Shown: one piece after another, positions 4,211 to 56,241 of the stretch | Layout of the letters: every line of letters begins with the position of its first letter | Position numbering within the stretch: the stretch's first letter is position 1 | Assembly: GCA_030390025.1 (NCBI GenBank) | Contig: CM059432.1 | Span: forward strand, 91,576,001-91,640,000 | DNA from: Squalus acanthias | Taxonomy: Eukaryota | Direction of reading: 5' to 3' | DNA: 64,000 nucleotides | Translations under genes and position numbers: made by a program | Notes under the pieces: generated by a model | Seen by the model: the letters and a program-made list of their open reading frames with translations, nothing else | The model's database searches: none | Told to the model about the DNA's origin: nothing

Positions 4211-4799
4211 TCAAAGACTCCATTTCTTCATCTCTCACAAATCTATCTAACAACTATAACCTCTTACTTTTGTTTGACACTGCTCTTTGACATTTATCTA
4301 TAAGCATTCTTGTCCTCACTATTCCCTCTGACCTCAAATGGAACTTTGATATCTCCTCCATTTCTGCAGTGTCTCCAAACATCTTGGTTTTCTCTTTCAT
4401 GTCAAACACTTATCTTTCCGCCACACATCTTAACTCTCTATAGATCAAAGCCCATCCAAGTCTTAAACATTGCTCCCATGTGGTGGTAATGGCGGGGGGT
4501 GGGGGGGCGGGGGGTTGGGGGGGGTACGGGTTGGGGTGGTTCTTCCAACCTCTCTGTTAAACTCTTACATAGCATGTTAGAAAATGGTTCTTGTCTAATT
4601 GAAAATCCCTTTCTCACTTCTAGCCTCTACCTCTCTTTCACCATCACAACATTCTTGTCTTTTATTTGTTTTACTAATACCACTATGGTCATTGCTCCTT
4701 TGAACACCAGTAGCTGCAATGGATAGGTGCTGTATTATTTGAGAGGATAGCACTGTGCTGTGAAAGGGGCTGTTGGGGAGGAGGAGGAGGAGGAACTAA

Positions 4800-5604
4800 G
4801 TGAGGGGCCTGTGGAGGAGGTACTGTACTGAGTGAGGGGTTCTATGGAGGAGGTACTGTACTGAGTGAGGGGTTCTGTGGAGGAGGTACTGTACTGAGTG
4901 AGGGGTTCTGTGGAGGAGGTACTGTACTGAGTGAGGGGTTCTGTGGAGGAGGTACTGTACTGAGTGAGGGGTTCTGTGGAGGAGGTACTGTACTGAGTGA
5001 GGGGCCTGTGGAGGAGGTTCTGTACTGAGTGAGGGGTTCTGTGGAGGAGGAGGTACTGTACTGAGTGAGGGGTTCTGTGGAGGAGGTACTGTACTGAGTG
5101 AGGGGTTCTGTGGAGGAGGTACTGTACTGAGTGAGGGGTTCTGTGGAGGAGGTACTGTACTGAGTGAGGGGCCTGTGGAGGAGGTTCTGTACTGAGTGAG
5201 GGGTTCTGTGGAGGAGGAGGTACTGTACTGAGTGAGGGGTTCTGTGGAGGAGGTACTGTACTGAGTGAGGGGTTCTGTGGAGGAGGTACTGTACTGAGTG
5301 AGGGGTTCTGTGGAGGAGGTACTGTACTGAGTGAGGGGCCTGTGGAGGAGGTTCTGTACTGAGTGAGGGGTTCTGTGGAGGAGGAGGTACTGTACTGAGT
5401 GAGGGGTTCTGTGGAGGAGGTACTGTACTGAGTGAGGGGTTCTGTGGAGGAGGTACTGTACTGAGTGAGGGGTTCTGTGGAGGAGGTACTGTACTGAGTG
5501 AGGGGTTCTGTGGAGGAGGTACTGTACTGAGTGAGGGGTTCTGTGGAGGAGGTACTGTACTGAGTGAGGGGTTCTGTGGAGGAGGTACTGTACTGAGTGA
5601 GGGG
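4800..5604. repeat. 33-bp minisatellite (~24 units) with a 167-bp higher-order repeat
   Basis: Unit GAGGAGGTACTGTACTGAGTGAGGGGTTCTGTG. A 32-bp variant (GGGGCCTGTG) recurs at 5001, 5168 and 5335, each followed by a 36-bp variant. Confidence 0.97.
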
Positions 5605-6091
5605 CTGCAATGAGGAGGAGGCATTTTATCCTGGACCTTAGTGGAGAAGCCACTGTGGTTTTCCTGCTGGGCTGAAACAGGTCGGCAGCTGGTGGGAAGT
5701 ATTAATTGGCCCTCTAGGTAAGCCAAATTATGTCATTTATGGGGCCAGGAGTAGCAGGGGTGCTCTTCCGGACCCCACAAGGAAAGTCACAGCCTCCGCT
5801 GCCCGACTGCCCCTCTCTCCTGCAGGATCCTCCCAGAACAGCCTCCCTGCCACTTACCTGGTAGCTGGTGTATGGCCAATGGTTACCCAATCTTTACCAG
5901 CCTGCATCTGGTCTGCACCCTCTTCCCATTGGCATCATTTAAATGAGGCCCAGGAGTTAAAATACCCCAGGCCTGAAACTTAGGCTAGTGAATGCATTAC
6001 ACCCTCCATTCGCCCGAAACCCAATCAGGGTTAAAATCAGCCCCATGTGGTATTTGTAGATTTTGGGTAAAATACCCACATTTTTCAGAAA

Positions 6092-34224: not shown

Positions 34225-36000
34225 GGACGGTGCTGAATAGGATATATTTTGGATAATCTGAAGTAAACTGAAGGTGGAGGATGGGAGATTGGCTGGGAGA
34301 GCATTGGAATAGTCGAGGCTGGAGATGACAAAGGCATGGAGGAGGATTTCAGTGGCAGATGAACTGAGATGGGGCAGAGGCGGGTGATATTATGTAGGTG
34401 AATGTAGGTGGCCTTTATGATGGAGTGGGCGTGATGTTAGGAGCTCAGTTGGGGTTGAATAGGACACTGAGGTTACAAACAGTCTAGTTCAGCCTTAGAC
34501 AGTGAGTGAGGAAGGAGGTTGAATTGTTGACAAGTGTATGGAATTTGTGGCAGGGGCCAAGATCATAGCTTTGATCTTTCCAACATATAACAGGAGGTGA
34601 TTGCAGCTCATCCAAGATTGGATGTCGGACCAGCATTCTGACAACACAGAGGCAGTGGAGGGGTTGAGAGAGGTCATGGAGAGGTAGAGCTGGATATTAT
34701 CAACATACATGTGGAAACTGACCATGTATTTAAAGATGATGGGGGTAAAATATCCTAGACTCAACCATCTTCAGCTGCTTCATCAATGACTTTCCCTCCA
34801 ACATAAGGTCAGAAATGGGGATGCTCGCTGATGACTGCACAGTGTTCAGCGCCATTCACAACTCCTCAGATAATGAAGCAGTCCATGCCCGCATGCAACA
34901 CGACCTGGACAACTTTCAGGCTTGGGCTGATAAGTGGCAGCTAACATTCGCGCTACACAAGTGCCAGGCAATGACTATTTCTAACAAGCAAGAGTCTAAC
35001 CATCGCCCCTTGACATTCAATGGCATTACCATCGCCGAATCCCCCACCATCAACATCCTGGGGGTCACCATTGACCAGAAACTTAACTGGACCAGCCACA
35101 TAAATAATGTGGCAACAAGAGCAGGTCAGAGGCTAGGTATTCTGCAGTGTGTGTCTCACCTCCTGACTCCCCAAAGCCTTTCCACCATCTACAAGGCACA
35201 AGTAAGAAGTGTGATGGAATACTCTCCACTTGCCTGGATGAGTGCAGCTCCATCAACACTCAAGAAGCTCAACACCATCCAAGACAAAGCAGCACACTTG
35301 ATTGGCAGCCCATCCACCACCTTAAACATTCACTCCCTCCACCACCGGCGTACTATGGCTGCAGTGTGTACCATCTACAAGATGCACAGCAGCAACTCGC
35401 CAAAGCTTCTTCGGCAGCACCTCCCAAACCCGCGACCTCTTCCACCTAGAAGGACAAGGGCAGCAGGCGCATGGGAACACCACCACCTCCATGTTCCTCT
35501 CCAAGTCACGGACCATGGTTTGCTGGGCAAGGGGAAAGGGGGGAAGCAGGAGAGACAGCTGAACAGATGCTATAAATCATAGCAAGAAGAGGTTCATGAG
35601 CTCCTTGCACTTGTTGTTGGAGGTGAGGGTGGAGAGAGCTGAGGAAAGAGGATTAATGATCTGGTTGGTAGTGAAGAAAACAAGCCAGTTATCTTTGCTT
35701 CAGGATGATCCTGGAGTAGAGGGCAGTTTTGGCAAAGGAGAGCGAGGCCCTTTAGCACTGGATGTGGTGCAGCCAGATTTAGTGACAGATGGCTATGCCA
35801 GATATATTCAAATTTGTGGCCCTTGGATGAGGGAGCAAAGACGGGGGCCAAACCAGGGGGAATCATCAGGATGGGAAAGAGTAAAGGTGTTGCTGACAAC
35901 AAGGGCATCGTAGAATGTGTGGGTTTGTTCTATCAGTGCACCGTTCCAGAATTGGCCCTTCAATCCATGGAGGAGCAGTGTGCTAGAAATGGGGCAAGAA
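34225..36000 (-). mobile_element. Old L2 LINE fragments, interrupted by the LINE at 34763-35510
   Basis: SFHMYVDNIQLYLS...WMSCNHLLL on the minus strand; further L2-like sequence at 35515-36000. Confidence 0.65.
34763..35510 (+). mobile_element. Young CR1/L2-group LINE (Zenon/Daphne-like), RT C-terminal fragment
   Basis: ADDCTVF, LSTIYKAQVRSVMEYSPLAW, IHSLHHRR; near-identical to other copies in the window. Confidence 0.85.
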
Positions 36001-43679: not shown

Positions 43680-45235
43680 TTAAAAATGAGTTTGCAGGTG
43701 ACTGATGAGTCCAATGCGGGACCTACAGTCTCTGTCACAGGTGGGGCAGACGGTGGTTGAAGGGGCAGGTGGGTGGGGTGCTTGGGTTGACGTGCGCTCC
43801 TTGCGCTTGGCTTCCGCTTGCTCCCGGCGAAGAGACTCGAGGTGTTCGCGCCTTCCCGGATGCTTCTCCTCCACTTTGTGTGGTCTTGGGCCAGGGATTC
43901 CCAGGTGTCGGTGGGGTTCCCAGGTGTCGGTGGGGATGTTACACTTTTTCAAGGAGGCTTTGAGTGTGTCCTTGAAGCGTTTCCTCTGCCCACCTGGGGC
44001 TCTCTTGCCGTGTCGGAGCTCCGAGTAGAGCGCTTGTTTTGGGAGTCTCGTATCGGGCATGCGGACAATGTGACCCGTCCATCGGAGCTGATCAAGCGTG
44101 GTCAAAGCTTCGATGCTGGGGATGTTGGCCTGAGCAAAAACACTGACGTTGGTGCGCCTATCCTGCCAATGGATTTGCAGGATCTTGCGGAGGCAGCGTT
44201 GATGGTACCTCTCCAGTGCTTTGAGGTGCCTGCTGTACATGGTCCATGTCTCTGAGGCATACAGCAGGGCGGGTATCACTGCTGCTCTGTAGACCATGAG
44301 CTTAGTGCCGGGTTTGAGGTCCTGGTCTTCAAACACTCTCTTCCTCAGGTGACCGAAGGCTGCACTGGCACACTGAAGGTGGTGTTGGACTTCGTCGTCG
44401 ACGTCTGCCCTTGTTGACAGTAGGCTCCCGAGGTATGGAAAGTGGTCCACGTTGTCCAAGGCCTTGTCGTGGATTTTGATAATCGGGGGGCAGTACTCTG
44501 TGGTGGGGGCAGGTTGGTAGAGGACCTTTGTCTTACGGATGTTTAGTGTAAGGCCCATGCTCTCGTACGCTTCGGTGAAGGTGTTGATGATGGTTTGGAG
44601 TTCGACCTCCGAGTGAGCGCAGACGCAAGCGTCGTCTGCATACTGTAATTCGACGACAGAGGATGGGACGACCTTGGATCTGGACTGGAGGCGATGGAGG
44701 TTGAACAGTTTCCCATTTGTTCTGTAAATTAGCTCCACTCCAGCGGGGAGCTTACTGAGGGTGAGATGGAGCATTGCAGCAAGGAAGATCGAGAAGAGCG
44801 TTGGTGCGATGACACAGCCTTGCTTGACCCCGGTTCGTACGTGAATTGGGTCTGTGGTGGAACCGTTGGTCAGGATCATGGCTTGCATGTCGTCGTGAAG
44901 CTGGCGGAGGATGGTGACAAACTTTTGAGGGCAGCCGAATTTGCGGAGGATACTCCATAATCCCTCACGGTTGACAGTGTCGAAGGCCTTTGTGAGATCA
45001 AAGAAGGCCATGTACAGCGGTTGGTGCTGTTCCCTGCATTTCTCTTGTAATTGACGTGCAGTGAAGATCATGTCCATTGTGCCCCTTAGTGGGCGGAATC
45101 CGCATTGTGACTCTGGGAGGAGCTCTTCGGCCACTGGGAGAAGGTGATTGAGGAGGATTCTTGTGATGACTTTCCCTGTGGCAGACAGCAGGGAAACTCC
45201 TCTGTAATTACCGCAATCGGACTTGTCACCTTTCT
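43680..45235 (-). CDS. RTE reverse transcriptase and C-terminal CCHH zinc finger (fragment)
   Basis: CGNYRGVSLL, PESQCGFR, FFDLTKAFDTV, GVKQGC, LQYADD, CPTCDRDCRSRIGLISHLQTH. Confidence 0.85.
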
Positions 45236-46467
45236 CAAACAATCCCTGTCCCGAGTCCCAATGGGCGACAAGCTGATCCTCCTTGGAGACTTTAACGCCA
45301 GAGTTGGAAAGGACACTGACCTCTGGGGAGGTGTGATCAGCAGAGAGGGGGTAGGGAAAGCCAACTCCAACGGTACCCTCCTCCTGTCAAAATGCTTAGA
45401 ACATGGCCTTGTCATAACCAACACCTTATTCCGTCAGAGAGACAAGTACAAGGCTTCATGGCAGCACCCTCGCTCCAAGCACTGGCACCTGCTGGACTAC
45501 ATCATCGTCCGAGCGAGGGACCGCAAGGACGTCCGCATCACCCGCGCTATGACAGGAGCTGACGACTGCTGGACAGACCACCGCCTAATCCGTTCTGTCA
45601 TCTCCATCAATGTAACCCCAAAACAGCGGCGGCAACAGAAACAATGCCGCAGGAAAATTAACACTGGAGCACTCAAAGACCCCGCTAAGAAAGCCCTATT
45701 CAGCCTGCGCCTCACAAACAACCTGACGACTCCCAGTGATGCAGAGACACAGAGTGCCCACAGCGCCTGGTCTGCACTCAAGGCCTCCATAATCAGCACC
45801 TGTGAAGAGACGCTCGGTCACTCGACCAGGAAACACCAAGACTGGTTCGACGAGAATGACCAGGAGATCCAGGAGCTAATAAGCCGCAAGCGCAAGGCAT
45901 TCCTGATCTGGAAACAGCAACAGAACTCGAGAGCAAGAAAGCAGCTCTACAGATGCCTGAAGGCTGAGGTCCAACAAAAAACTCGCGACCTAAAGAACAG
46001 ATGGTGGGTGGAGAAAGCGCAGGAGATCCAGCAGCTAGCCGACAACCACGACGTGCGTGGATTCTTTAGCGCAGTCAAGACCATCTGCGGCCCAAGCACC
46101 CAAGGCCCTACCCCACTGCGGGCCAAGAACGGAGTACTCATCAAGGACAGAGAGGCAGTCAGTGCCCGCTGGAAGGAGCACTTCGAAGATCTCCTTAACC
46201 ACGACTCTGTCTTCGACGCGAGTGTCCTCAACTCCATCCCGCAGCATGCTACCCGCCACCATCTCAGCACAACCCCAGCCCGGCATGAGGTTGAAAAGGC
46301 CATCCGACAACTGAAGAACAACAAGGCCTCAGGAGCAGATGGAATCCCCGCCGAGGCACTAAAGCATGGCGGAAAAGCACTACTGGCGCGAATTCATGAA
46401 CTAATTTCTCTTATATGAAAGGAGGAGAGCATGCCAGGGGATCTCAGAGACGCCGTAATTGTGACCA
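45234..46467 (+). pseudogene. RTE APE endonuclease C-terminal half and linker (inverted arm)
   Basis: LLGDFNARVG, HWHLLDYII, WTDHRL, KASGADGIPAE; one TGA in place of a Trp codon at 46416. Confidence 0.85.
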
Positions 46468-49042
46468 TTGGTTCTCTACCAAATTATTGACCTTACAATT
46501 GTCATAAGCCTCCTTTTTCTGTCTCACTTTAACTTCCTTATCTTTAGTCATCCAGGAAGCTCTAGCTTTAGATGCCCTTGCTCTCCCCCTCACGAGAGTG
46601 TGTCTACTTTATACAGAACCATCTCCTCTTTGAAGGCCTCCCATTGTTCAATTACTGTTTTGCCTACCAACTTTTGATTCCAATCCACCTGGGCCAGATC
46701 CCTTTTCAACTCACTGAAGTTAGCCCTCCTTCAGTTAAGGATTTTTACACTTGATTGTACCTTGTACTTCTCCATAAATATTCTCTATCCTGTGCTTGTA
46801 CCAGTGCTCATGTTGGTTACAGAGATGTCTGAGCAGTGTGCATTGCTGGTATTTGTGCTGGTGGAACCTTCGGGTGTTCTGGTGCAAATGATCCCTGCAG
46901 CCTAACAGTCTAACTATTTGAAGGGAGAAAGCTAAGCATTAACAGCTTTCTAATATTTTTGTCACACACAATGTTGAACAGTGCTTGATATTTTCCATGC
47001 TAATATTTTATACTATATTGCTAAATGTATTTTTATATTAGGTTAGATCTTGTGGTAACTTAAGTGGCTCACAAAGGATGATGAAATAGTTAGCATATAT
47101 TGAGACATGCAGCAGGGCATGTACATCTGCTGAAAAGGGAGGAAACATCTTTAGGCAAACCAGACTGCAGAGTGAGATAAGCAAAAGTAAGTGCAGCTGA
47201 TACAGTTTTATGTTTAGCCATAATATAGACTAAAAGTAAGAATGAAAAATTGAATAGATTAGACTGAGTCTTTAATAATGTAAGAATTAACACAATTAAT
47301 AGGAGGTATACTGGTTTAGAGATAATGGGAAAGTACTGAGCAAGAAATGTGCAGCTGAACGATGTAAGGACTAGAATGTAATAACCTTGAGGATCAATAA
47401 GAGTGAGGGCCTTGGAACTCACTGGCAAGATTAGAATTATGTCAGGAGTTGATTACTAATAGGTATAAATATGGCAAACTCCATTTTACTTTGGCACTTC
47501 GTGAGTATGGCTCATTCCATCTTGATTGCCTGACCCAGCTGAGGTGTCCCGGATTGTGAGTATGACTCCTGTCCTTATGATTTGTTACGAGTAGGTTGCA
47601 TGGCTTTAAGATCTAGCTACATACATAGTACTTTCCTATAGTTTATGTGGACTTTGGACTTAATAAAGTTATTCATGACGCTATTATGTGCTGAGATTTC
47701 TTGAACATACCGGGTGAATGCACGCACCCAGGCCAACACACAATGTCAAAGATAATTGCACAAATATTTAGTGTGCATTTGCTTTTAACAATTTGTTACT
47801 TTTTCTCTTTCCACCTGTTTTTCTCCCCTTTCTGGTCATACATCCTGCAATCAAGAAGGCACACAATGCTTTGAGTTATCCTCCCTTCCTGCTTGGAACC
47901 TCCCCACAGCAGCATAGTCAAAATAGAATGAGCATAAAACATATCATTCATTCTGTGGATTTGTGTTCCAATACAATGTGGTAACAGACGAACTTAGAGT
48001 CATATGTTAAGCATGCCTATGCGTGCCAAAGATTGTGTAACAGACTTTATAAATTGTTATATTAAAAGATATTGGCCCGGATATTGCTGTAATAATAGTG
48101 GTGAGGCTATCAGCACTACAGGGTAAATCTGACATTAACTTCTGGCATCCAGACATGTGCAGTTAAAAGCAAAAATCCAGGAGTTACTGTCAGAGACACC
48201 CTACTCCTTTAGATGCTGTTGCAGTCCTTGCCAATAGACTCAGCACTGAAATCACTGTAATGGCGTGAACTTGCTGTACTTGCCCATTAGTTCCGCACTA
48301 AAAATGGCTGAAAAAGTTAGAGCTGGTACATTTAGGAGTGAGTGAGTTTTTAATGGTGTAATGAGGGATAATTACTGCTGAACAACCTCTCTGAACCTGA
48401 AAAAATGTTTTTACAAATCTGGAGTCTCATTCCCTCACAAGAAAATTAATGTTGCAGATTTTTTTTAAAGTATTTTCAATTTTTTTTTACTTTCACTGTC
48501 TCTTTTATCTCTCTCCCTTAATCCCATCTGTATTTCCCAGTCTTTATTTTGCTTCCTGTACATGATTTAAATGTAATTTAGATTTCCTGCTTTTTACTTC
48601 TTGGTTTGGACTCTGTGGGGAGGTGGGGGTTATTTTTACTACAAAAAGCGAGTGGGTTTGGGAGCGGGTGGGTGATTAAAAGTGCTGAAATTGGCAGTGC
48701 ATCAGGAAGCCGGCTCCAACCCACCGACATCCGCATTTAACTGGAGCGCGTTCAACTGCGTGTGAGAAATGCCCTCGGGAGAGCTGGGTTGCTAATTTAA
48801 ATATGTTAAGAGGTAATTAACAGCTTTTTGAACAGGGGTTTTCAACTTTAACTGTGGGTGCACGGGTTTCCCGGGCTTCCTGGACCTCGTCAGTGAAAGC
48901 AAGGTGAGAGCACTACGGTAATTGAGGGGGGCTGAACAAGTGACAGGCAAAAAATTGCCTAAGTACTGAGACCTCATACCTGCTTCCTTGCCTAAGTGAA
49001 AGGCTTTTGCTCACAGCACTTGTTCTGAGAGTTTGCTTTTAG

Positions 49043-49140
49043 TACTTTGCAGGTGATTTCTACAACTTTGGACGTGGTTTCCACTACTTTGGAGGTGATT
49101 TTTATTACCTTAGAGGTGACTTTTACTACTTTGGAGGTTT
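49043..49140. repeat. 21-bp tandem repeat, ~4.5 copies
   Basis: ACTTTGGAGGTGATTTYYAYT units upstream of the transposase. Confidence 0.75.
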
Positions 49141-49329
49141 GTGCGTCTGATCTCCACTTTCCATCTGTCATATATCAGATCAGCATGGGTGCTGCTTGTG
49201 CTGTTTCACCTTGGACCTCAGATGAGGACCAAGATGAGCAGCAGCAGCAACACCACCAGCAGCACCAACAGGAGCAGCAGTAGCCTTCTCCTCACAGACC
49301 TGTGAGGGGTTGAGCACAGAGGTGCAGCT

Positions 49330-50259
49330 CGCAGGAGGCGATACCCACAACACACAGGGTATACAGGCAGAGGATCAGCTTCCTGGACATGACTGAACAG
49401 CAGTGCCTCAGGAGGCTCAGGGTATCACGTCAGGTTGTGGCAGACATTTGTAGCTTGCTGGAACAAGACCTGCTGCCAAGCGGACCTGGTGGACACGCGT
49501 TACCAGTGGCTGTCAAAGTGACCACTGCCTTCAACTTCTTCACCTCAAGCTCCTTCCAGGGATCTGCAGGAGATATTTGTAGGATTTCGCAGTCGGCCGC
49601 CCACAAATGCATCACACAGGTGACCAATGCCATGTTTGCCAGGGCAGGCAATTGTGTACACTTTACCACCGATGAAGCCAGTCAGAATGAGCGGGCGCTC
49701 GGGTTTGCGGCTCTGGCTGGCTTCCCACAGGTGCAGGGCATCATCGACTGCACACATATTGCAATTAAGGCACCCCCAGATCACCCAGGATCCTTATGGT
49801 TCGTGAACCGTAAGGGCTTCGACTCCATCAATGTGTGGCTCGTCTGTAATCACAAAAAAATAATTATGCATGTGTGTGCCAGATTCCCAGGGAGCTGCCA
49901 TGATACATTCGTCCTGCGCCAGTCCACCCTCCCTCAGCACTTCGCACCTCTGAACAGACTTACCGGCTGACTGCTTGGAGTCAAGGGCTATTCACATAAA
50001 ATGTGGCTGATGAGACCCCTAATGAGAAACCCAAGCAATGAGGCCCAAGAGCGCTACAATCAAAGCCAGATGACGACCAGATGTGTAATAGAGCAAGCAA
50101 TCGGGATGCTGAAGATACACTTTAGGTGCCTCAACAGATCTGGAGACGCCCTTCAATACGCACCAGCCAGGGTCTCCAGAATGATCGTGGTGTGCTGCAT
50201 TCTGCAGGAGGAGCAAGGCGCAGAGTGCAGTGCCTCTTCAGAGGATGAACAGGAGGAGG
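49330..50259 (+). pseudogene. Harbinger (HARBI1-like) transposase, disrupted
   Basis: [59 protein letters not shown]; stop at 49968 and LTR insertion in the acidic tail. Confidence 0.88.
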
Positions 50260-51729
50260 TGTAAAAGAATAAGCCATATTCCAAGAAATACATCATCCTA
50301 TGAACCGATTTTGATAACATTAATACATGACATACTGGGTTTAAAAGTCTGGAAAGCCTCAGCAACACAGGCTGCAAACACAATACAGGCTTCTGAGATA
50401 AGATGGTTTGTTAACACAAAGCTGTGAAAACAAGCTTTGAAATGGGAATTAGATTGTAAATACAGAGACAAAGCCCCTATTGAAGCAAACCAATTGGCGC
50501 TTCCAGAATGTCTAGAGTTTGGAACAAAACAATAACAATGCCCAAGTAAAGTGTCAAAATCTAACATGTCGAACAGGTGCACAGAACATTAAAAAAAACA
50601 AGAGCCTTTGAAAAAATGACATCAAGTAAAAGAAATACCTGCCGTAAAACAGTTTTATGTTAAACTTAGAAACAGGAAACAAGATTAAATATGCAATCAA
50701 TTGAAATAGCTAAGAAATGCAAAAAACACCCTGGTTGAAGTGTTTTTGATTTACAAGTTGTAAAAGGTACAAATAGGAAGGCTTTGAAAATATATTATCA
50801 ATAGATGACACCAAGCAATTATATTGTGTTTGTACGGAGTCACGACGTCTGGCTTACAAGCAGTTAAGTGATATTAAGAATTCAATAGAAAGACTTCCTA
50901 AGAATAGCATCAAATAGATCAATCGACAATAACCATAAAAATGATACGTTTTTGAAACACCTAAAGGTAGAGACAGAATTCTAAAAGTTGGCAGCTGAAA
51001 TGACAGTAAGAATAGAAAAGCATTCAATAAAGAATCACTGGAGATAATTAGTTTACATCAGCAGGAAACTTCAAAGAAAATACCACTAAAAAAAGGTATA
51101 AAAATAGAGCTTTTCAGATAGAGAGTCAGAAGTCGCTGGAAGGGCAAACGTTTCTCAACTTCACAGGCACGACCTGTAAGTTTTCAACTCTGAGTCTCGG
51201 GTAATCAAGGTATTTGATTTTGGTGGATATTCTAGATTAAGAAATAAGTAGAAGTGTGGAAATGTAACAAAGTTAAGATTTGAGAATAAGGATCTCTGAT
51301 AAGAAATGTAAGCTATTTGTATTTTGAACGGTTAAAGTCGCGATTGACTTATCAGCTGTTAACTGAATGTCGGCTCTTAAATAAATCTATATATTTTTAG
51401 AATTGTCTCAAGTAGTATTTCTGTATCAACCTCACGAACTCAATTTCTGTACACTCTTCAGAGAGGAGTTGCAGAATTCTGGGGGGTTTTCCGGACCCTC
51501 ATAATATCCGGAAGGTTACAGTCTAGTTAAACTTATTAAAAGTGCTATTCGGAGGATGGTAACATCTTCAGGCCGTTTCTTTCCTTTAGGGAGAGGTAGT
51601 CTGACCTTTAGACCCAATTAAGCGTCTCTAGGATTCGGCTACCGCTAACTTTAGTTGAAGGTGAACGTCTGGGGAATACGTCTGATCTGGGGTAGTCCGA
51701 AAGGGCTAGGACTTGTAATTATCCCCTCA
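50260..51729 (+). mobile_element. Solo LTR, 1470 bp (endogenous retrovirus or LTR retrotransposon)
   Basis: TG...CA termini, 4-bp TSD GAGG (50256-50259 and 51730-51733), TATAAAA at 51097, AATAAA at 51380; sharp compositional break from the host transposase. Confidence 0.8.
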
Positions 51730-53365
51730 GAGGAACAGGAGGAGAAGGAACGTTACGTGGCCATGGCACCAGCAACTGCGCACATTGCTGCCCGAGATGC
51801 CCGGGATGGCCTCATAATGGCAAGATTTAGTTAGGTTGCATCACTGCACCCATCTGGCAGCCACATGCTGAACCCACTTGCCCACCCCCCTCTCCCCCAG
51901 CACAAAGTAGTCCTGCAATCAACAAAGCATTCCTTTCACAGACACCCATTGCTTGGATTTAAGTCTTGTCTTACCATTCACAGGTGACAAGGCCACTTGC
52001 CCGGTAGCAGGGAAAAATGGGCAAGACGGGAAAGTGGTGCAAAGAAATAATTTTTATGTGGCTCAAAATTTAAACAGAAACTTAACATTGTAACATTGTG
52101 TAACACACCAATGGGCATATCCTTGTGCAATTACAAATCATTCATCTTCCTTTTTCTACTACTCCTACATTGTGCAATCCCTGTAGCTTCAGCAGAGGTA
52201 GAGGCAGGCTGCTCACACCCTGCTCTCATTGCTGAGATGCACTTAGCCGACATTCGTTGGGTTTTGGAGCCCGTGAGGGCCCCGCCAAATACTGCTCCAC
52301 CTGCACCTGTGCAGAGGCAAACTCAGCCATCGGGACACAAGGCAGCATGTGGGGCTCTGACTGGGGGTTGGGGGGCAACAGGTGAGAATTGGAAGCGCTT
52401 TGAGCCAAGTCCCCACTTCCATGGCCACTTTCTCCATATTCCCCCTCATGGCCCAGCCGCACTTCGCTGTTAGCAATGAGCTGGAAAGCATTTTGCTGCA
52501 CATCAGTGGGGTGCTGAACAGCCAAGGCTAGGTTTTGATCTATCTTATTTCAGGTGGCATTCATAGTGTGCAAGCCATTGGTGAGGGCCAGCATGCACTC
52601 GTTTGCTGCGTTTGATGCTCCATGCAGGTGGCCACTCTTTCCATGGATGAAGACATCATAGCAAAGGCCTGCGACATCATGCCACTAATGCTTGAGACAA
52701 CTCTTCCATTCTCTCTGCAATTGTGCACAGTGCGGCTGGAAAGCCTGCCAGGACCTCACACATTTTTGCTGCTGCTCCTGAATTATCCTCTTCGTCGACG
52801 GCCCCCAAGGTTCAGCATCTGTGTCCAGCTGAGCAGAGCTTGGAGGGTCCTGCGCCCTTCAACGCGGACTCTCGACTGCTGTCCCTGTCTCCACCATCTG
52901 CTCTTGCTCACATGTGATGTGTGAGACATCAGGTGATAACACAACTATCTACCTTACTGGTCCCACTGACGTGTGTGTATCTGAGCTGATGCATGGTCTG
53001 CATGAGTCCTGTGACGGTGCACCTTCAGAGTGAGTGACCTCTTCTGAGGAGTCGTTGTCGTCCTCTGGCACCACCTCCTGCGGAACACTTGATGGGCTTG
53101 TGGGAGACTAAAGACAGTAATTGGAACTGTCACAGTAAGAATGTTGTAAGTGAATATTATGCACATGATCATATTTCACTGGCTGCTGACATCAAGTCAA
53201 CATAGTGAGTGTTGTATGCCATGTGGCTGTGATATTTATTTCTGTCACTAGGTAACTGGGAGGCCCCCATCTCCAATTGCCAAGCTGACACGCGGCTTAT
53301 CTCCAGCACATCCTCCTCAGCAGCTATCAGTGTGGCGATGGCTGGAGGGCCACCTCTGGTTCTGT

Positions 53366-56241
53366 GGCCTAGAAATTCACTACCTTAGTGCCAAGCGTTA
53401 ACACCGGATTTCTTCAAAAATTGGCGTCCGCCTCGTTTCCGCCTGCTGACACGGCAGCTGCCATTTTGGAGAGGTCAAGAGCGCTACTAGCATTCATCTC
53501 TCCAATGCAAATGTGCAGATCGTGATGTCAATCGGCGTGTAATGCCTGATTTGATGCACGACTGCAATTTTGGATGTCACCGCACACCATATCGGCCTCT
53601 CCAAACCACGCACGGAAGAACGTGCGTGCAGCAGTACTTCAGAGACGCTGTCAGCGCTTCTTAAAAGGACACACACATCTTTCAAGTAAGTTTTGATTTC
53701 AGCTGTTGGAGTCGATTTTTTAGATTTTATTGAAGTAGTGGCTTGATGCAATATATTTAAAAAGTTGTTAAAGAGTGAAGGGAGTGTTGCTGGATGCGTG
53801 CAAGGCCTTGAATGTTAAAGGAAGGCCTCTGAGAAGACCAATTACGCACAGTCCTGGAGGGCACACGGAGATGAAGCAGAGGCATCATCTTGGCCACAAT
53901 GCTGAAATAAAAGCCACCACAAAGCAAATTTTCCAATCCAACATTATCCATATATTTTTCTTTTATTCGTTTTTTTGGGATGTGGGCGTCACTGGCAACG
54001 CCAGCATTTATTGCCGCTCCCTAATTGCCCTTGAGAAGGTGGTGGTGAGCCGCCTTCTTGAACCACTGCAGTCCATGTGGTGAAGGTACTCCCATAGTGC
54101 TGTTAGGGAGGGAGTTCCAGGATTTTGACCCAGCGACAATGAAGGATCGGCGATATACTTCTAAGTCAGGATGGTGCGTGACTTGGAGGTGAACTTGCAG
54201 GTGGCGGTGTTCCCATGCCATGTCCTTCTAGGTGGAAGAGGTCGCGGGTTTGGGAGGTGCTGCCGAAGAAGCCTTGCTGCAGTGCATCTTGTAGATGGTA
54301 CACACTGCAGCCATGGTACGCCGGTGGTGGAGGGAGTGAATGTTTAAGGTGGTGGATGGGGTGCCAATCAAGCTTTGTATTGGATGGTGTCGAGCTTCTC
54401 GAGGGTTGTTGGAGCTGCACTCATCCAGGCAAGTGGAGAGTATTCCATCACACTCCTTACTTGTGCCTTGTAGATGGTGGAAAGGCTTTGGGGAGTCAGG
54501 AGGTGAGACACTCACCGCAGAATACCTAGCCTCTGACCTGCTCTTGTTTCCACAGTATTTATGTGGCTGGTCCAGTTAAGTTTCTGGTCAATGGTGACCC
54601 CCAGGATGTTGATGGTGGGGGATTCGGTGATGGTAATGCCATTGAATGTCAAGGGGAGGTGGTTAGACTCTCGCTTGTTGGAGATAGTCATTGCCTGCCA
54701 CTTATGTGGCGCAAATGTTACCTACCACTTATCAGCCCAAGCCTGAACGTCGTCCAGGTCTAGTTGCATGCGGGCATGGACTGCTTCATTATCTGAGGAG
54801 TTGCAAATGGCGCTGAACACTGTGCAGTCATCAGTGAACATCCCCATTTCTGACTTTATGTTGGAGGGAAGGTCATTGATGAAGCAGCTGAAGATGGTTG
54901 GGCCTAGGACACTGCCCTGAGGAACTCCTGCAGCGATGTCCTGGGGCTGTGATGATTGACCTTCAACCACCACAACCATCTTCCTTTGTGCTCGGTATGA
55001 CTCCAGCTAGTGCAGTGTTTTCCCCTCAATCCCCATTGACTTCAGTTTTACTAGGGCTCCTTGATGCCACACTCGGTCAAATGCTGCCTTGATGTCAAGG
55101 GCAGTCACTCTCACCTCACCTCTGGAATTCAGCTCCTTTGTCCATGTTTGGACCAAGGCTGTAATGAGGTCAGGAGCCGAGTAGTCTTGGCGGAACCCAA
55201 GCTGGGCATCAGTGAGCAGGTTAGTGGTGAGTAAGTGCCGCTTGATAGCACTTTGCTGCTGATTGAGAGTAGACTGATGGGGCGGTAATTGGCTGGGTTG
55301 GATTTGTGCAGCTTGTAAATCAGAAGAGATTGTAGGATGAGGGCGACGTGGGATGTGAGAAAGAGGTTAATGTATGAGGATACTAGCATCTTGTATTCTT
55401 TCAGCTCCGCCGCCGACCAAGGGCTCAGCCATGCCCCTGCCAAGAATGGCCAGCACCGTGTCCTCCAAGGATGTGAGGTGAAGCTAGGAATGTGAGGTGT
55501 GCCTCATGTTTGGTACAGATTGTTGGTAGGTGGGGGTGGGTTGGTCATACATTGAGCATTGTGTGAGGCTAGTGGTACAGTTAGTAGGAGACAGCTTTTG
55601 AAGATGCATTCACTGACCTTGACCACTGGTCTGAGGTCAAGAAACATCTTTGGGCACTGGAGCCAGGTCCTGGGTGGGGCGGCACTGCTGGCAATCTGGT
55701 CCCATATCCTTCTTTCTGGAGGGACTGCTCGCCCCTGTGGGTAGAGGAACTCTCTTCCACTTTTGACCCACTGCACAATGCTTGAGTGCTGTGTGCGAGA
55801 CCAAGGGTGCCCTTTCCCTGGCCTGTTGAGCCATTTGTGTTAGTGCTGAAGCACTTTTAACATGTTTTACATATGAAAGGCAGTTCAGCTTTAAGAGCTG
55901 AAGACTACCTAGTTTGGAATGATTTTTAATGGGCTTTTTTCAGAAGGCAGTTGAGCTCTAAGGGCTAGAGACTGCCTATTTTTGAATGATTTTTAATTTT
56001 TTTTCAGAAGGCAGTTCCCTTTTAAAGGCTTGATAATGCTTTCTAAAATGATAGCCTTAAGAAAAGGCAGCCTTGCTCCAGGGACACTACAGGGATGTGA
56101 TATTGGGCCTCCTGCTGAGTGCACAGCCTGAAGCAGTGCCTTCATCGCTGGGCTGTGCGCTGAAATCATTCAAATCAGCAGGCAGCACCAAAATAACGTA
56201 CTGCCTTCGATTTTTTTACAGGCCCGAGCAAATCTCACCCC
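53366..56241 (-). mobile_element. Non-autonomous Harbinger, related to 6092-7316 and 59974-62225, in inverted orientation
   Basis: Terminus GGCCTAGAAATTC. Myb exon WLQCPKMFLDLRPVVK|gtcagt on -. 53.6-53.84 kb matches the reverse complement of 61.73-61.93 kb. Right end is approximate. Confidence 0.7.
53953..55305 (-). mobile_element. Young CR1/L2-group LINE, RT to 3' end
   Basis: SNPANYRPISLLS, AGVPQGSVLGP, FTDDCTVF, shared 3' tail. Confidence 0.88.

Follow-up and report, generated by a model that had tools for sequence, protein, structure and literature searches.

The window analysed here, a stretch of 64,000 nucleotides of the spiny dogfish Squalus acanthias (contig CM059432.1, positions 91,576,001 to 91,640,000), carries a gene for a Harbinger-type transposase that is interrupted by a 1,470-bp block (50260–51729), which we read as the solo LTR of an endogenous retrovirus. 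The features of the locus are given below in window coordinates.

49185..50259, plus strand: host Harbinger-type transposase, 5' part, with three in-frame stops (DDE_Tnp_4, E 2e-14 and 4e-11)
50256..50259, plus strand: GAGG, left copy of the 4-bp target-site duplication
50260..51729, plus strand: solo LTR (TG...CA) from an endogenous retrovirus of the foamy-virus clade; paired homologues surround gag-pol
50260..51125, plus strand: inferred U3, 43% A, the most divergent LTR part between subfamilies (border from TATA box and Initiator)
50334..50336 (LTR nt 75–77), no strand assigned: site of a small inverted-repeat element in at least nine other LTR copies, empty here
51097..51103, plus strand: TATA box TATAAAA, kept in 63 of 72 LTR copies
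51126..51130, plus strand: Initiator-like TCAGA, inferred start of R, in 58 of 72 LTR copies
51176..51181, plus strand: candidate major splice donor GTAAGT inside R (GT in 69 of 72 copies, GTAAGT in 54 of 72)
51380..51385, plus strand: poly(A) signal AATAAA, kept in 70 of 72 copies (99.5th percentile among all 6-mers)
51406..51729, plus strand: inferred U5, with an inferred R/U5 border; in proviruses a tRNA-Lys(CTT) primer site lies 2 nt beyond
51730..51733, plus strand: GAGG, right copy of the 4-bp target-site duplication
51734..51834, plus strand: 3' part of the host transposase, including its acidic tail and stop, assigned by frame and paralogue comparison

The motifs that the first-pass annotation had read in the block, namely TG and CA ends between GAGG repeats, TATAAAA at 51097, TCAGA at 51126, a GT donor at 51176 and AATAAA at 51380, are all present at these positions, and from the motifs alone we place the presumed borders of U3, R and U5. 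Its description of the block as A-rich holds for the proposed U3 (43% A over the first 870 nt) but not for U5 (25% over the last 320 nt), with 37% A overall. A further TCAGA lies at 51114, and an extra AATAAA that the first-pass annotation had not listed lies in U3 at 51026, where it is kept in just 23 of the 72 LTR copies that cover the region and on which motif conservation was scored. The order TATA box, donor, AATAAA appeared in 10 of 2,000 dinucleotide shuffles and never on the reverse strand, under a spacing rule (donor 60–110 nt after the TATA box, AATAAA 100–350 nt further) that was fixed after the block had been seen. The full GTAAGT is no better conserved than background (45th percentile of 6-mers), with GTAGGC in 12 copies.

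In prototype foamy virus (PFV) a donor in R inhibits polyadenylation within the 5' LTR, with the poly(A) signal at +168 in an R of 193 nt, as described in the available text of PMC3694450. By analogy the block would share with PFV, and with mammalian foamy viruses generally, a donor-like site in R ahead of the poly(A) signal, whereas its own signal lies at about +255 and its candidate donor is not specially conserved. The motif order and the conserved TATA box and AATAAA support this analogy. Transcription was looked at in eight contig sets from two studies, which hold 0.25–0.31 of the LTR words and whose RNA nature is guessed. Contig depth was higher over R-U5 than over U3, in material that cannot rank levels, and the low-depth contigs mapped to the window or to the LTR-gag-protease stretch contained no splice joint at the donor at 51176. 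The single joint seen in the possible-RNA contigs (four runs) spans 995 nt and occurs at low depth in three runs; it was rejected as a splice because it equals a gag deletion in genomic DNA copies. One loose contig end close to the donor was matched in none of 89 loci.

The earlier proposal that removal of the block rejoins the transposase with its acidic tail is borne out by the separately translated flanks, which share one frame after discounting one GAGG, and by paralogues that cross the site. Ten of 11 paralogous transposon copies are continuous and without the LTR, thus representing the empty site, and the remaining one is without a right-flank match. The host transposase also misses about 30 nt that its paralogues have, and this short deletion, together with its three own stops, indicates that it is dead independently of the LTR. 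Tested as PIF/Harbinger, the host element has the DDE_Tnp_4 transposase; no Pfam match for a Myb-like second gene was found in four downstream frames, and a search for paired terminal inverted repeats of the element found none. The host Harbinger family is abundant, with all 40 of the scored loci 82–88% identical. For the elephant shark, the available part of PMC9179366 reports that no Harbinger was found and suggests other cartilaginous fishes for checking. Elsewhere the window holds an array of 33-bp units, about 1 kb long in total (4712–5771), in which all three minus-strand frames stay open over some 300 codons. It also holds frames for LINE-type reverse transcriptase (RVT_1) at 43680–46418 and 34749–35582, and many LINE 3' fragments of 75–95% identity. 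No tRNA was found within the 64-kb window, and Rfam gave no match in 48000–54000.

A 1,470-bp solo LTR is by itself an ordinary repeat. When the block was searched against the 3.7-Gb genome, the 40 scored candidates yielded 42 matches, at 86–97% identity. Exact 18-mer LTR ends number at least 1,681 in the genome and LTR-primer-site junctions at least 173, both being exact-match floors with reversed controls at 0. Thirty loci were fetched, comprising 21 full-length LTRs without a following primer site (the window included), three 5' LTRs and six interrupted copies, and the 4-bp duplications at the 21 are exact in 19 and carry one mismatch in two, with L022, exact when both of its ends are shifted, counted among the latter. 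The first-pass annotation had stated that its reading would fall if no other copies shared these exact termini; many do, and the paired LTRs it had proposed to search for were recovered as homologues of the block flanking gag-pol in proviruses. Inspection of the primer-binding site, likewise proposed there, showed that 17 of 17 proviruses have a tRNA-Lys(CTT) site behind their 5' LTR, and 14 nt of this site pair with the 3' end of genes that are tRNA-Lys(CTT) by ARAGORN (6 of 6 loci). A GGG tract directly precedes the TG of the 3' LTR in 16 of 17, and five of the seven proviruses with both outer ends read have an exact 4-bp duplication. These comparisons bear out the block as a solo LTR from an endogenous retrovirus of the foamy-virus clade. 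Among 40 scored loci none was a provirus whose LTR is more than 92% identical to that of the window, so that the interior of its parent can only be deduced. By integrase DNA search, 150 of 150 scored loci were at least 82% identical, out of 13,533 candidates that are not usable as a copy number. As a separate observation, tRNA-Lys(CTT)-like 3' ends are clustered at about 9.9–11.0 Mb of C21 and at about 39.4–44.3 Mb of C26, there in a 1,798-bp tandem repeat.

The element inserted at LTR nt 75–77 in other copies (L009, L028–L032, L037, L050 and L052) measures about 0.8–0.9 kb, has G-rich terminal inverted repeats and is flanked by a 3-bp duplication. As it occurs in both orientations (four and five copies) and in one LTR of a pair only, the insertions are separate later events, and the site is likely a target hot spot of non-autonomous Harbinger elements. 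Similar small elements are inserted at LTR nt 144, 210, 340, 535 and about 565–575.

The interiors of the family carry genes of the foamy type. Gag matches Gag_FV_central (PF20672) at E 5e-15 to 1e-13, finds foamy Gag only among PDB matches and is without a Cys-His box (no CCHC); its N-terminal part had no match against the Atlas, an uninformative blank. The natural pol frame of 1,153 codons encodes protease, RT (YVDD), RNase H and integrase, with Spuma_A9PTase and SH3_11, and its product is 38–39% identical to simian foamy Pol over 92% of its length. For RT, foamy sequences gave E 1e-118, Ty3 2e-32 and MLV-type sequences 8e-30; for integrase, PFV gave E 2e-50, HIV 2e-5 and Ty3 1.5e-4. The protease alone gave weak retropepsin matches only (best E 0.0045), and a homologue search with the Gag-protease part returned nothing at E 0.001, which is again uninformative. 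Foamy_virus_ENV (PF03408) was recognised at at least six loci by Pfam, and protein search found Env at seven loci (34 of 34 candidates scored; PDB foamy Env at E 7e-13). The six env-bearing loci that were fetched have env next to the same gag-pol, and the env of all seven is broken in the stretches read. No tas or bel2 was recognised in the family: one env-bearing copy has about 550 nt between the end of env and the polypurine tract, with no sense frame as long as 100 codons, and in a second none of 60 codons was found, the copies being decayed.

In the RT phylogeny that the first-pass annotation had called for (43 rows), the family stands beside the mammalian foamy viruses with support of 99/96, and in an RT-to-integrase tree (18 rows, with P0028 and near-identical rows omitted) with 99/98, while gamma/epsilon-like and Gypsy rows are separate from it in both. 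Both trees hold few non-mammalian references, with coelacanth, amphibian and named ray-finned fish elements not among the rows. Nearest to the family in both is P0026, a database protein of a foamy-like virus with fully fused Gag-Pol, whose 1,687-residue single frame runs without a stop and encodes protease, RT, RNase H and integrase as well as a region resembling Gag. It is the sole one of the best 150 profile hits to align in one stretch from Gag through RT; the pairwise Gag match of the family to P0026 is weak (E 0.023), and support for grouping the two falls from 98/86 to 82/76 on the longer alignment. A catshark RT is among the nearest named RT matches, and a predicted catshark protein, P0028, joins a foamy-like RT fragment to a PR/SET domain, which may be an artefact of the gene model or a case of co-option.

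The first-pass annotation had suggested a possibly spuma-related origin and had left a Gypsy or ERV1 origin open, naming full-length copies with Gypsy-type pol and no env as evidence against itself. Full-length copies instead carry foamy-type gag and pol, with env at seven loci, and the RT and Pol trees agree with the spuma-related reading. That the block is the LTR of a Gypsy (Metaviridae) element or of a gamma/epsilon-like ERV1 could draw on gamma-like viruses, which also show 4-bp duplications (PMC5210030, available text) and an in-frame gag stop (PMC8278194, available text). Against this, the best matches of Gag, protease, RT, integrase and Env are all to foamy families, each with a wide lead, the trees exclude both groups, and Gag is without a Cys-His box, so that we regard either origin as extremely improbable. 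Gypsy/Metaviridae membership is ruled out by an RT and integrase that do not fall with Ty3/Gypsy, and ERV1 membership by the lack of a gamma-type RT, a Cys-His Gag or a gamma-type Env.

The junction between gag and pol departs from what is known of foamy viruses, for which separate Pol expression is the textbook mark in the available text of PMC7828637. Gag runs for 525 residues from its ATG to a junction codon, and the Gag domain, this codon and the protease lie in one frame, with the protease Asp 29 codons after the stop. The junction codon was TGA in 38, TGG in six, TGC in one and TAA in one of the first 46 copies, and TGA in nine, TGC in two and TGG in one of 12 further copies. TGA is thus found in 47 of 58 copies and in all structural classes, including an env-bearing one, and a sense codon in 10 of 58, far above the neutral rate; the two env-bearing copies in which the junction is present differ, one having TGA and the other TGG. 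An in-frame Met between the stop and the catalytic Asp was seen in only two of the 46 copies, each of them RT-deleted, and the named foamy Pol proteins have their start Met 19–23 residues before this Asp (11 of 12 scored). A separate Pol start, with its own AUG, in another frame and on a spliced RNA, was not found in the family. For this reason we file it as a member of the foamy-virus clade by descent and not as a canonical member of the Spumaretrovirinae by replication strategy.

Comparison of pol between env-bearing and TGA-bearing env-less copies gave 51 non-synonymous to 70 synonymous changes (0.73), against a neutral expectation of 2.57 and a ratio of 1.59 for private changes (Fisher p 1e-4). 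Purifying selection inside the TGA-bearing env-less group alone is weak (p 0.07 for non-CpG sites, 0.015 for all sites). This selection on pol, with copies that bear TGA, suggests that Pol was made despite the stop. Over the 73–103 nt that follow the stop, RNA folding is not better than in shuffled sequence (z about -1.2); the first 30 nt reach z -2.1 in a stretch picked by eye, and two alternative hairpins there are not significant. The tree of junction codons is poorly resolved (four changes), with sense codons of two kinds scattered over it. Read-through of a stop codon for Gag-Pol is used by gamma-, epsilon- and some class III retroviruses. From the layout of the junction we consider it probable that Pol of the family was expressed by read-through of the UGA at the end of gag, in which a minority of ribosomes would continue past the stop to yield Gag-Pol.

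The structure of the copies informs on how the family spread. In 20 position-sampled proviruses, 13 on C3 and seven on C4 out of the 173 primer-site loci, env was found in none, which is firm for the 12 whose 3' LTR was reached; two skipped C4 loci are env-less as well. In the same 20 proviruses the RT core was present in four and integrase in 15, and seven (L130, L133–L135, L142, L143 and L146) are without gag and RT but have integrase DNA, constituting a further non-autonomous class. Interiors measure about 6 kb with RT and 3.4–5.4 kb without it, and an RT DNA search returned 166 candidates, all 40 of those scored being at least 96% identical. Median identity of R-U5 to the window LTR is 94% for solo LTRs, 91% for RT-deleted, 83% for RT-bearing and 79% for env-bearing copies, in sets that, like those of the R-U5 tree, were chosen by similarity. 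In this tree the window LTR falls in a clade with support of 100, made up of 36 LTRs from RT-deleted proviruses, two from RT-bearing copies and 20 solo LTRs, and the env-bearing LTRs form a separate long branch. LTR pairs differ by 2.3–8.5% in 17 copies, by 1.5–6.0% in 10 RT-bearing copies and by 3.2% in one env-bearing copy. The overall range is 1.5–8.5% and the median about 3.3%, loosely equivalent to roughly 30 Myr at the rate of 0.5e-9 assumed for the catshark in the available text of PMC10699275; the family is probably inactive today. Family LTRs were also observed nested within or adjacent to further family proviruses, some of them env-bearing (L076:1449-2838, L079:95-1533, L107:7790-8830).

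Two other explanations of the gag-pol junction concern the same virus. Gag-Pol may first have been one open frame, as in P0026 with its lack of a stop, with the TGA a nonsense change fixed in master copies and Pol supplied in trans. TGG to TGA is a common G-to-A change, and TGG or TGC stands at the junction in the 10 sense-codon copies, one of the two env-bearing junctions included. TGA, however, stands in 47 of 58 copies and occurs in all structural classes, an env-bearing copy included, the pol of env-bearing copies and that of TGA-bearing env-less ones diverged under purifying selection, and the sense codons are of two kinds and dispersed on the tree, so that we find this account unlikely. 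Alternatively, Pol might come from a separate spliced RNA with a non-AUG start, or the stop might be spliced out. Here the donor-like site in R, as in foamy viruses, a CTG in good start context 15 codons beyond the stop, and the separate pol frames of the newt and cichlid foamy-like ERVs (PMC5512871, available text) are set against a purine-rich sequence before the stop that makes a poor acceptor, a first exon that is without ATG and whose end cannot form one, the lack of a splice joint in the low-depth contigs and a pol that lies in the gag frame, unlike in the newt and cichlid relatives. We judge this improbable.

The abundance of env-less copies could alternatively be due to repeated re-infection, with Env provided by env-bearing proviruses or by circulating virus. 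Mammalian foamy capsids in general need Env for release, env-bearing loci do exist, and the LTR pair of one of them, 3.2% apart, falls in the age range of the env-less copies. Seven env loci, all broken where read, are nevertheless few against at least 173 proviruses, and the env-bearing LTRs form their own long branch; re-infection as the source therefore appears doubtful to us. We favour copying inside cells: an enveloped foamy-like virus, whose foamy env seven loci keep beside the same gag-pol, entered the germ line, and env-less gag-pol copies with interiors of about 6 kb would very probably then have been copied intracellularly, joined by copies lacking RT, or gag and RT, that used proteins supplied in trans. 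Integration proceeded with a 4-bp duplication, priming by tRNA-Lys(CTT) and a plus strand begun at the G-rich tract ending in GGG before the TG of the LTR, as the duplications, primer sites and LTR borders of the copies display. In the most likely history, infection was followed by env loss and intracellular copying; deleted copies then acted as parasites, and proviruses collapsed to solo LTRs. The window LTR itself is likely what remained when a provirus integrated in the Harbinger transposon recombined between its two LTRs. For the account as a whole, a foamy-clade solo LTR from a family with likely env-less germ-line spread and likely UGA read-through for Pol, we estimate a probability of about 0.85.

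Foamy endogenous retroviruses of sharks have been published before. Wang, Chen and Cui (2023, J Virol 97:e0181622) reportedly describe a cartilaginous fish endogenous foamy virus, CFEFV, said to lie at the root of vertebrate foamy viruses; judged by the title alone, it and the present family are both root-side shark or ray foamy viruses and very possibly the same lineage, and an account of the family may already be contained in Wang 2023 and Chen 2021. In the literature searched, which did not cover the texts of these two, no foamy virus was described as having an in-frame stop between gag and pol. ERV-Spuma.0-Sca of the small-spotted catshark, compared by description only, comprises 293 elements with an oldest LTR date of about 36 Myr and resembles the family as a foamy-clade shark ERV whose gag and pol ORFs are both annotated in frame 3. 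It differs by an LTR of 866 nt against about 1,480, a gag ORF of 753 codons against 525, its reported grouping with ray-finned fish elements and, in the available text, no recognised Gag domain (PMC10699275).

With the mammalian foamy viruses (prototype, simian, feline and equine) the family shares a long LTR, a tRNA-Lys primer site, the GGGTG border, the lack of a Cys-His box in Gag, homology of Gag, Pol and Env, and a 4-bp duplication (PMC5210030, available text). Mammalian foamy Pol starts at its own AUG on a spliced RNA (PMC7828637, available text), whereas that of the family follows in frame after the gag TGA. Further non-mammalian foamy-like elements with 4-bp duplications are NviFLERV of the newt and AciFLERV of a cichlid, the latter also having an LTR of 1,498 nt and a Lys primer site as in the family; NviFLERV-2 and AciFLERV have a Met-initiated pol in a frame other than gag, and the start in NviFLERV-1 is called 'uncertain' (PMC5512871, available text). 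CoeEFV of the coelacanth likewise shares 4-bp duplications and a PF03408 Env (PMC3386198, available text). The gag-TGA-pol layout in one frame, with read-through proposed, recurs in XtERV-S, a class III element of Xenopus that is, in the text available, not particularly foamy-like and has a gamma-type Env (PMC8278194), in contrast to the foamy Gag, Pol and Env of the family. ERV-L, a class III lineage, is env-less as well.

What is likely new in this family is the combination of env-less mass amplification and a probable read-through Gag-Pol. Foamy viruses rarely settle mammalian germ lines, where their copies are rare (PMC3386198, available text), whereas here an env-less form is abundant and left about 1,700 or more LTRs. 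Loss of env as a route to high copy number, reportedly set out by Magiorkinis in 2012, would by this family be extended to the foamy clade. A foamy-clade gag-TGA-pol in one frame also bears on when separate Pol expression arose. Given the ray-finned fish and newt relatives with their own pol start, the shark layout would be either ancestral, with separate starts arising twice, or a return to fusion, and both histories cost two steps. We tentatively suggest, as somewhat short of an even chance, that a lineage adjacent to the tetrapod-type foamy viruses kept a UGA-read-through Gag-Pol, and that this fusion, by bringing Pol into capsids with no need of RNA tethering, let the env-less virus mass-copy as a retrotransposon in a genome of the shark type. 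If true, the foamy Gag, Env and LTR layout would predate, and be separable from, the separate spliced pol.
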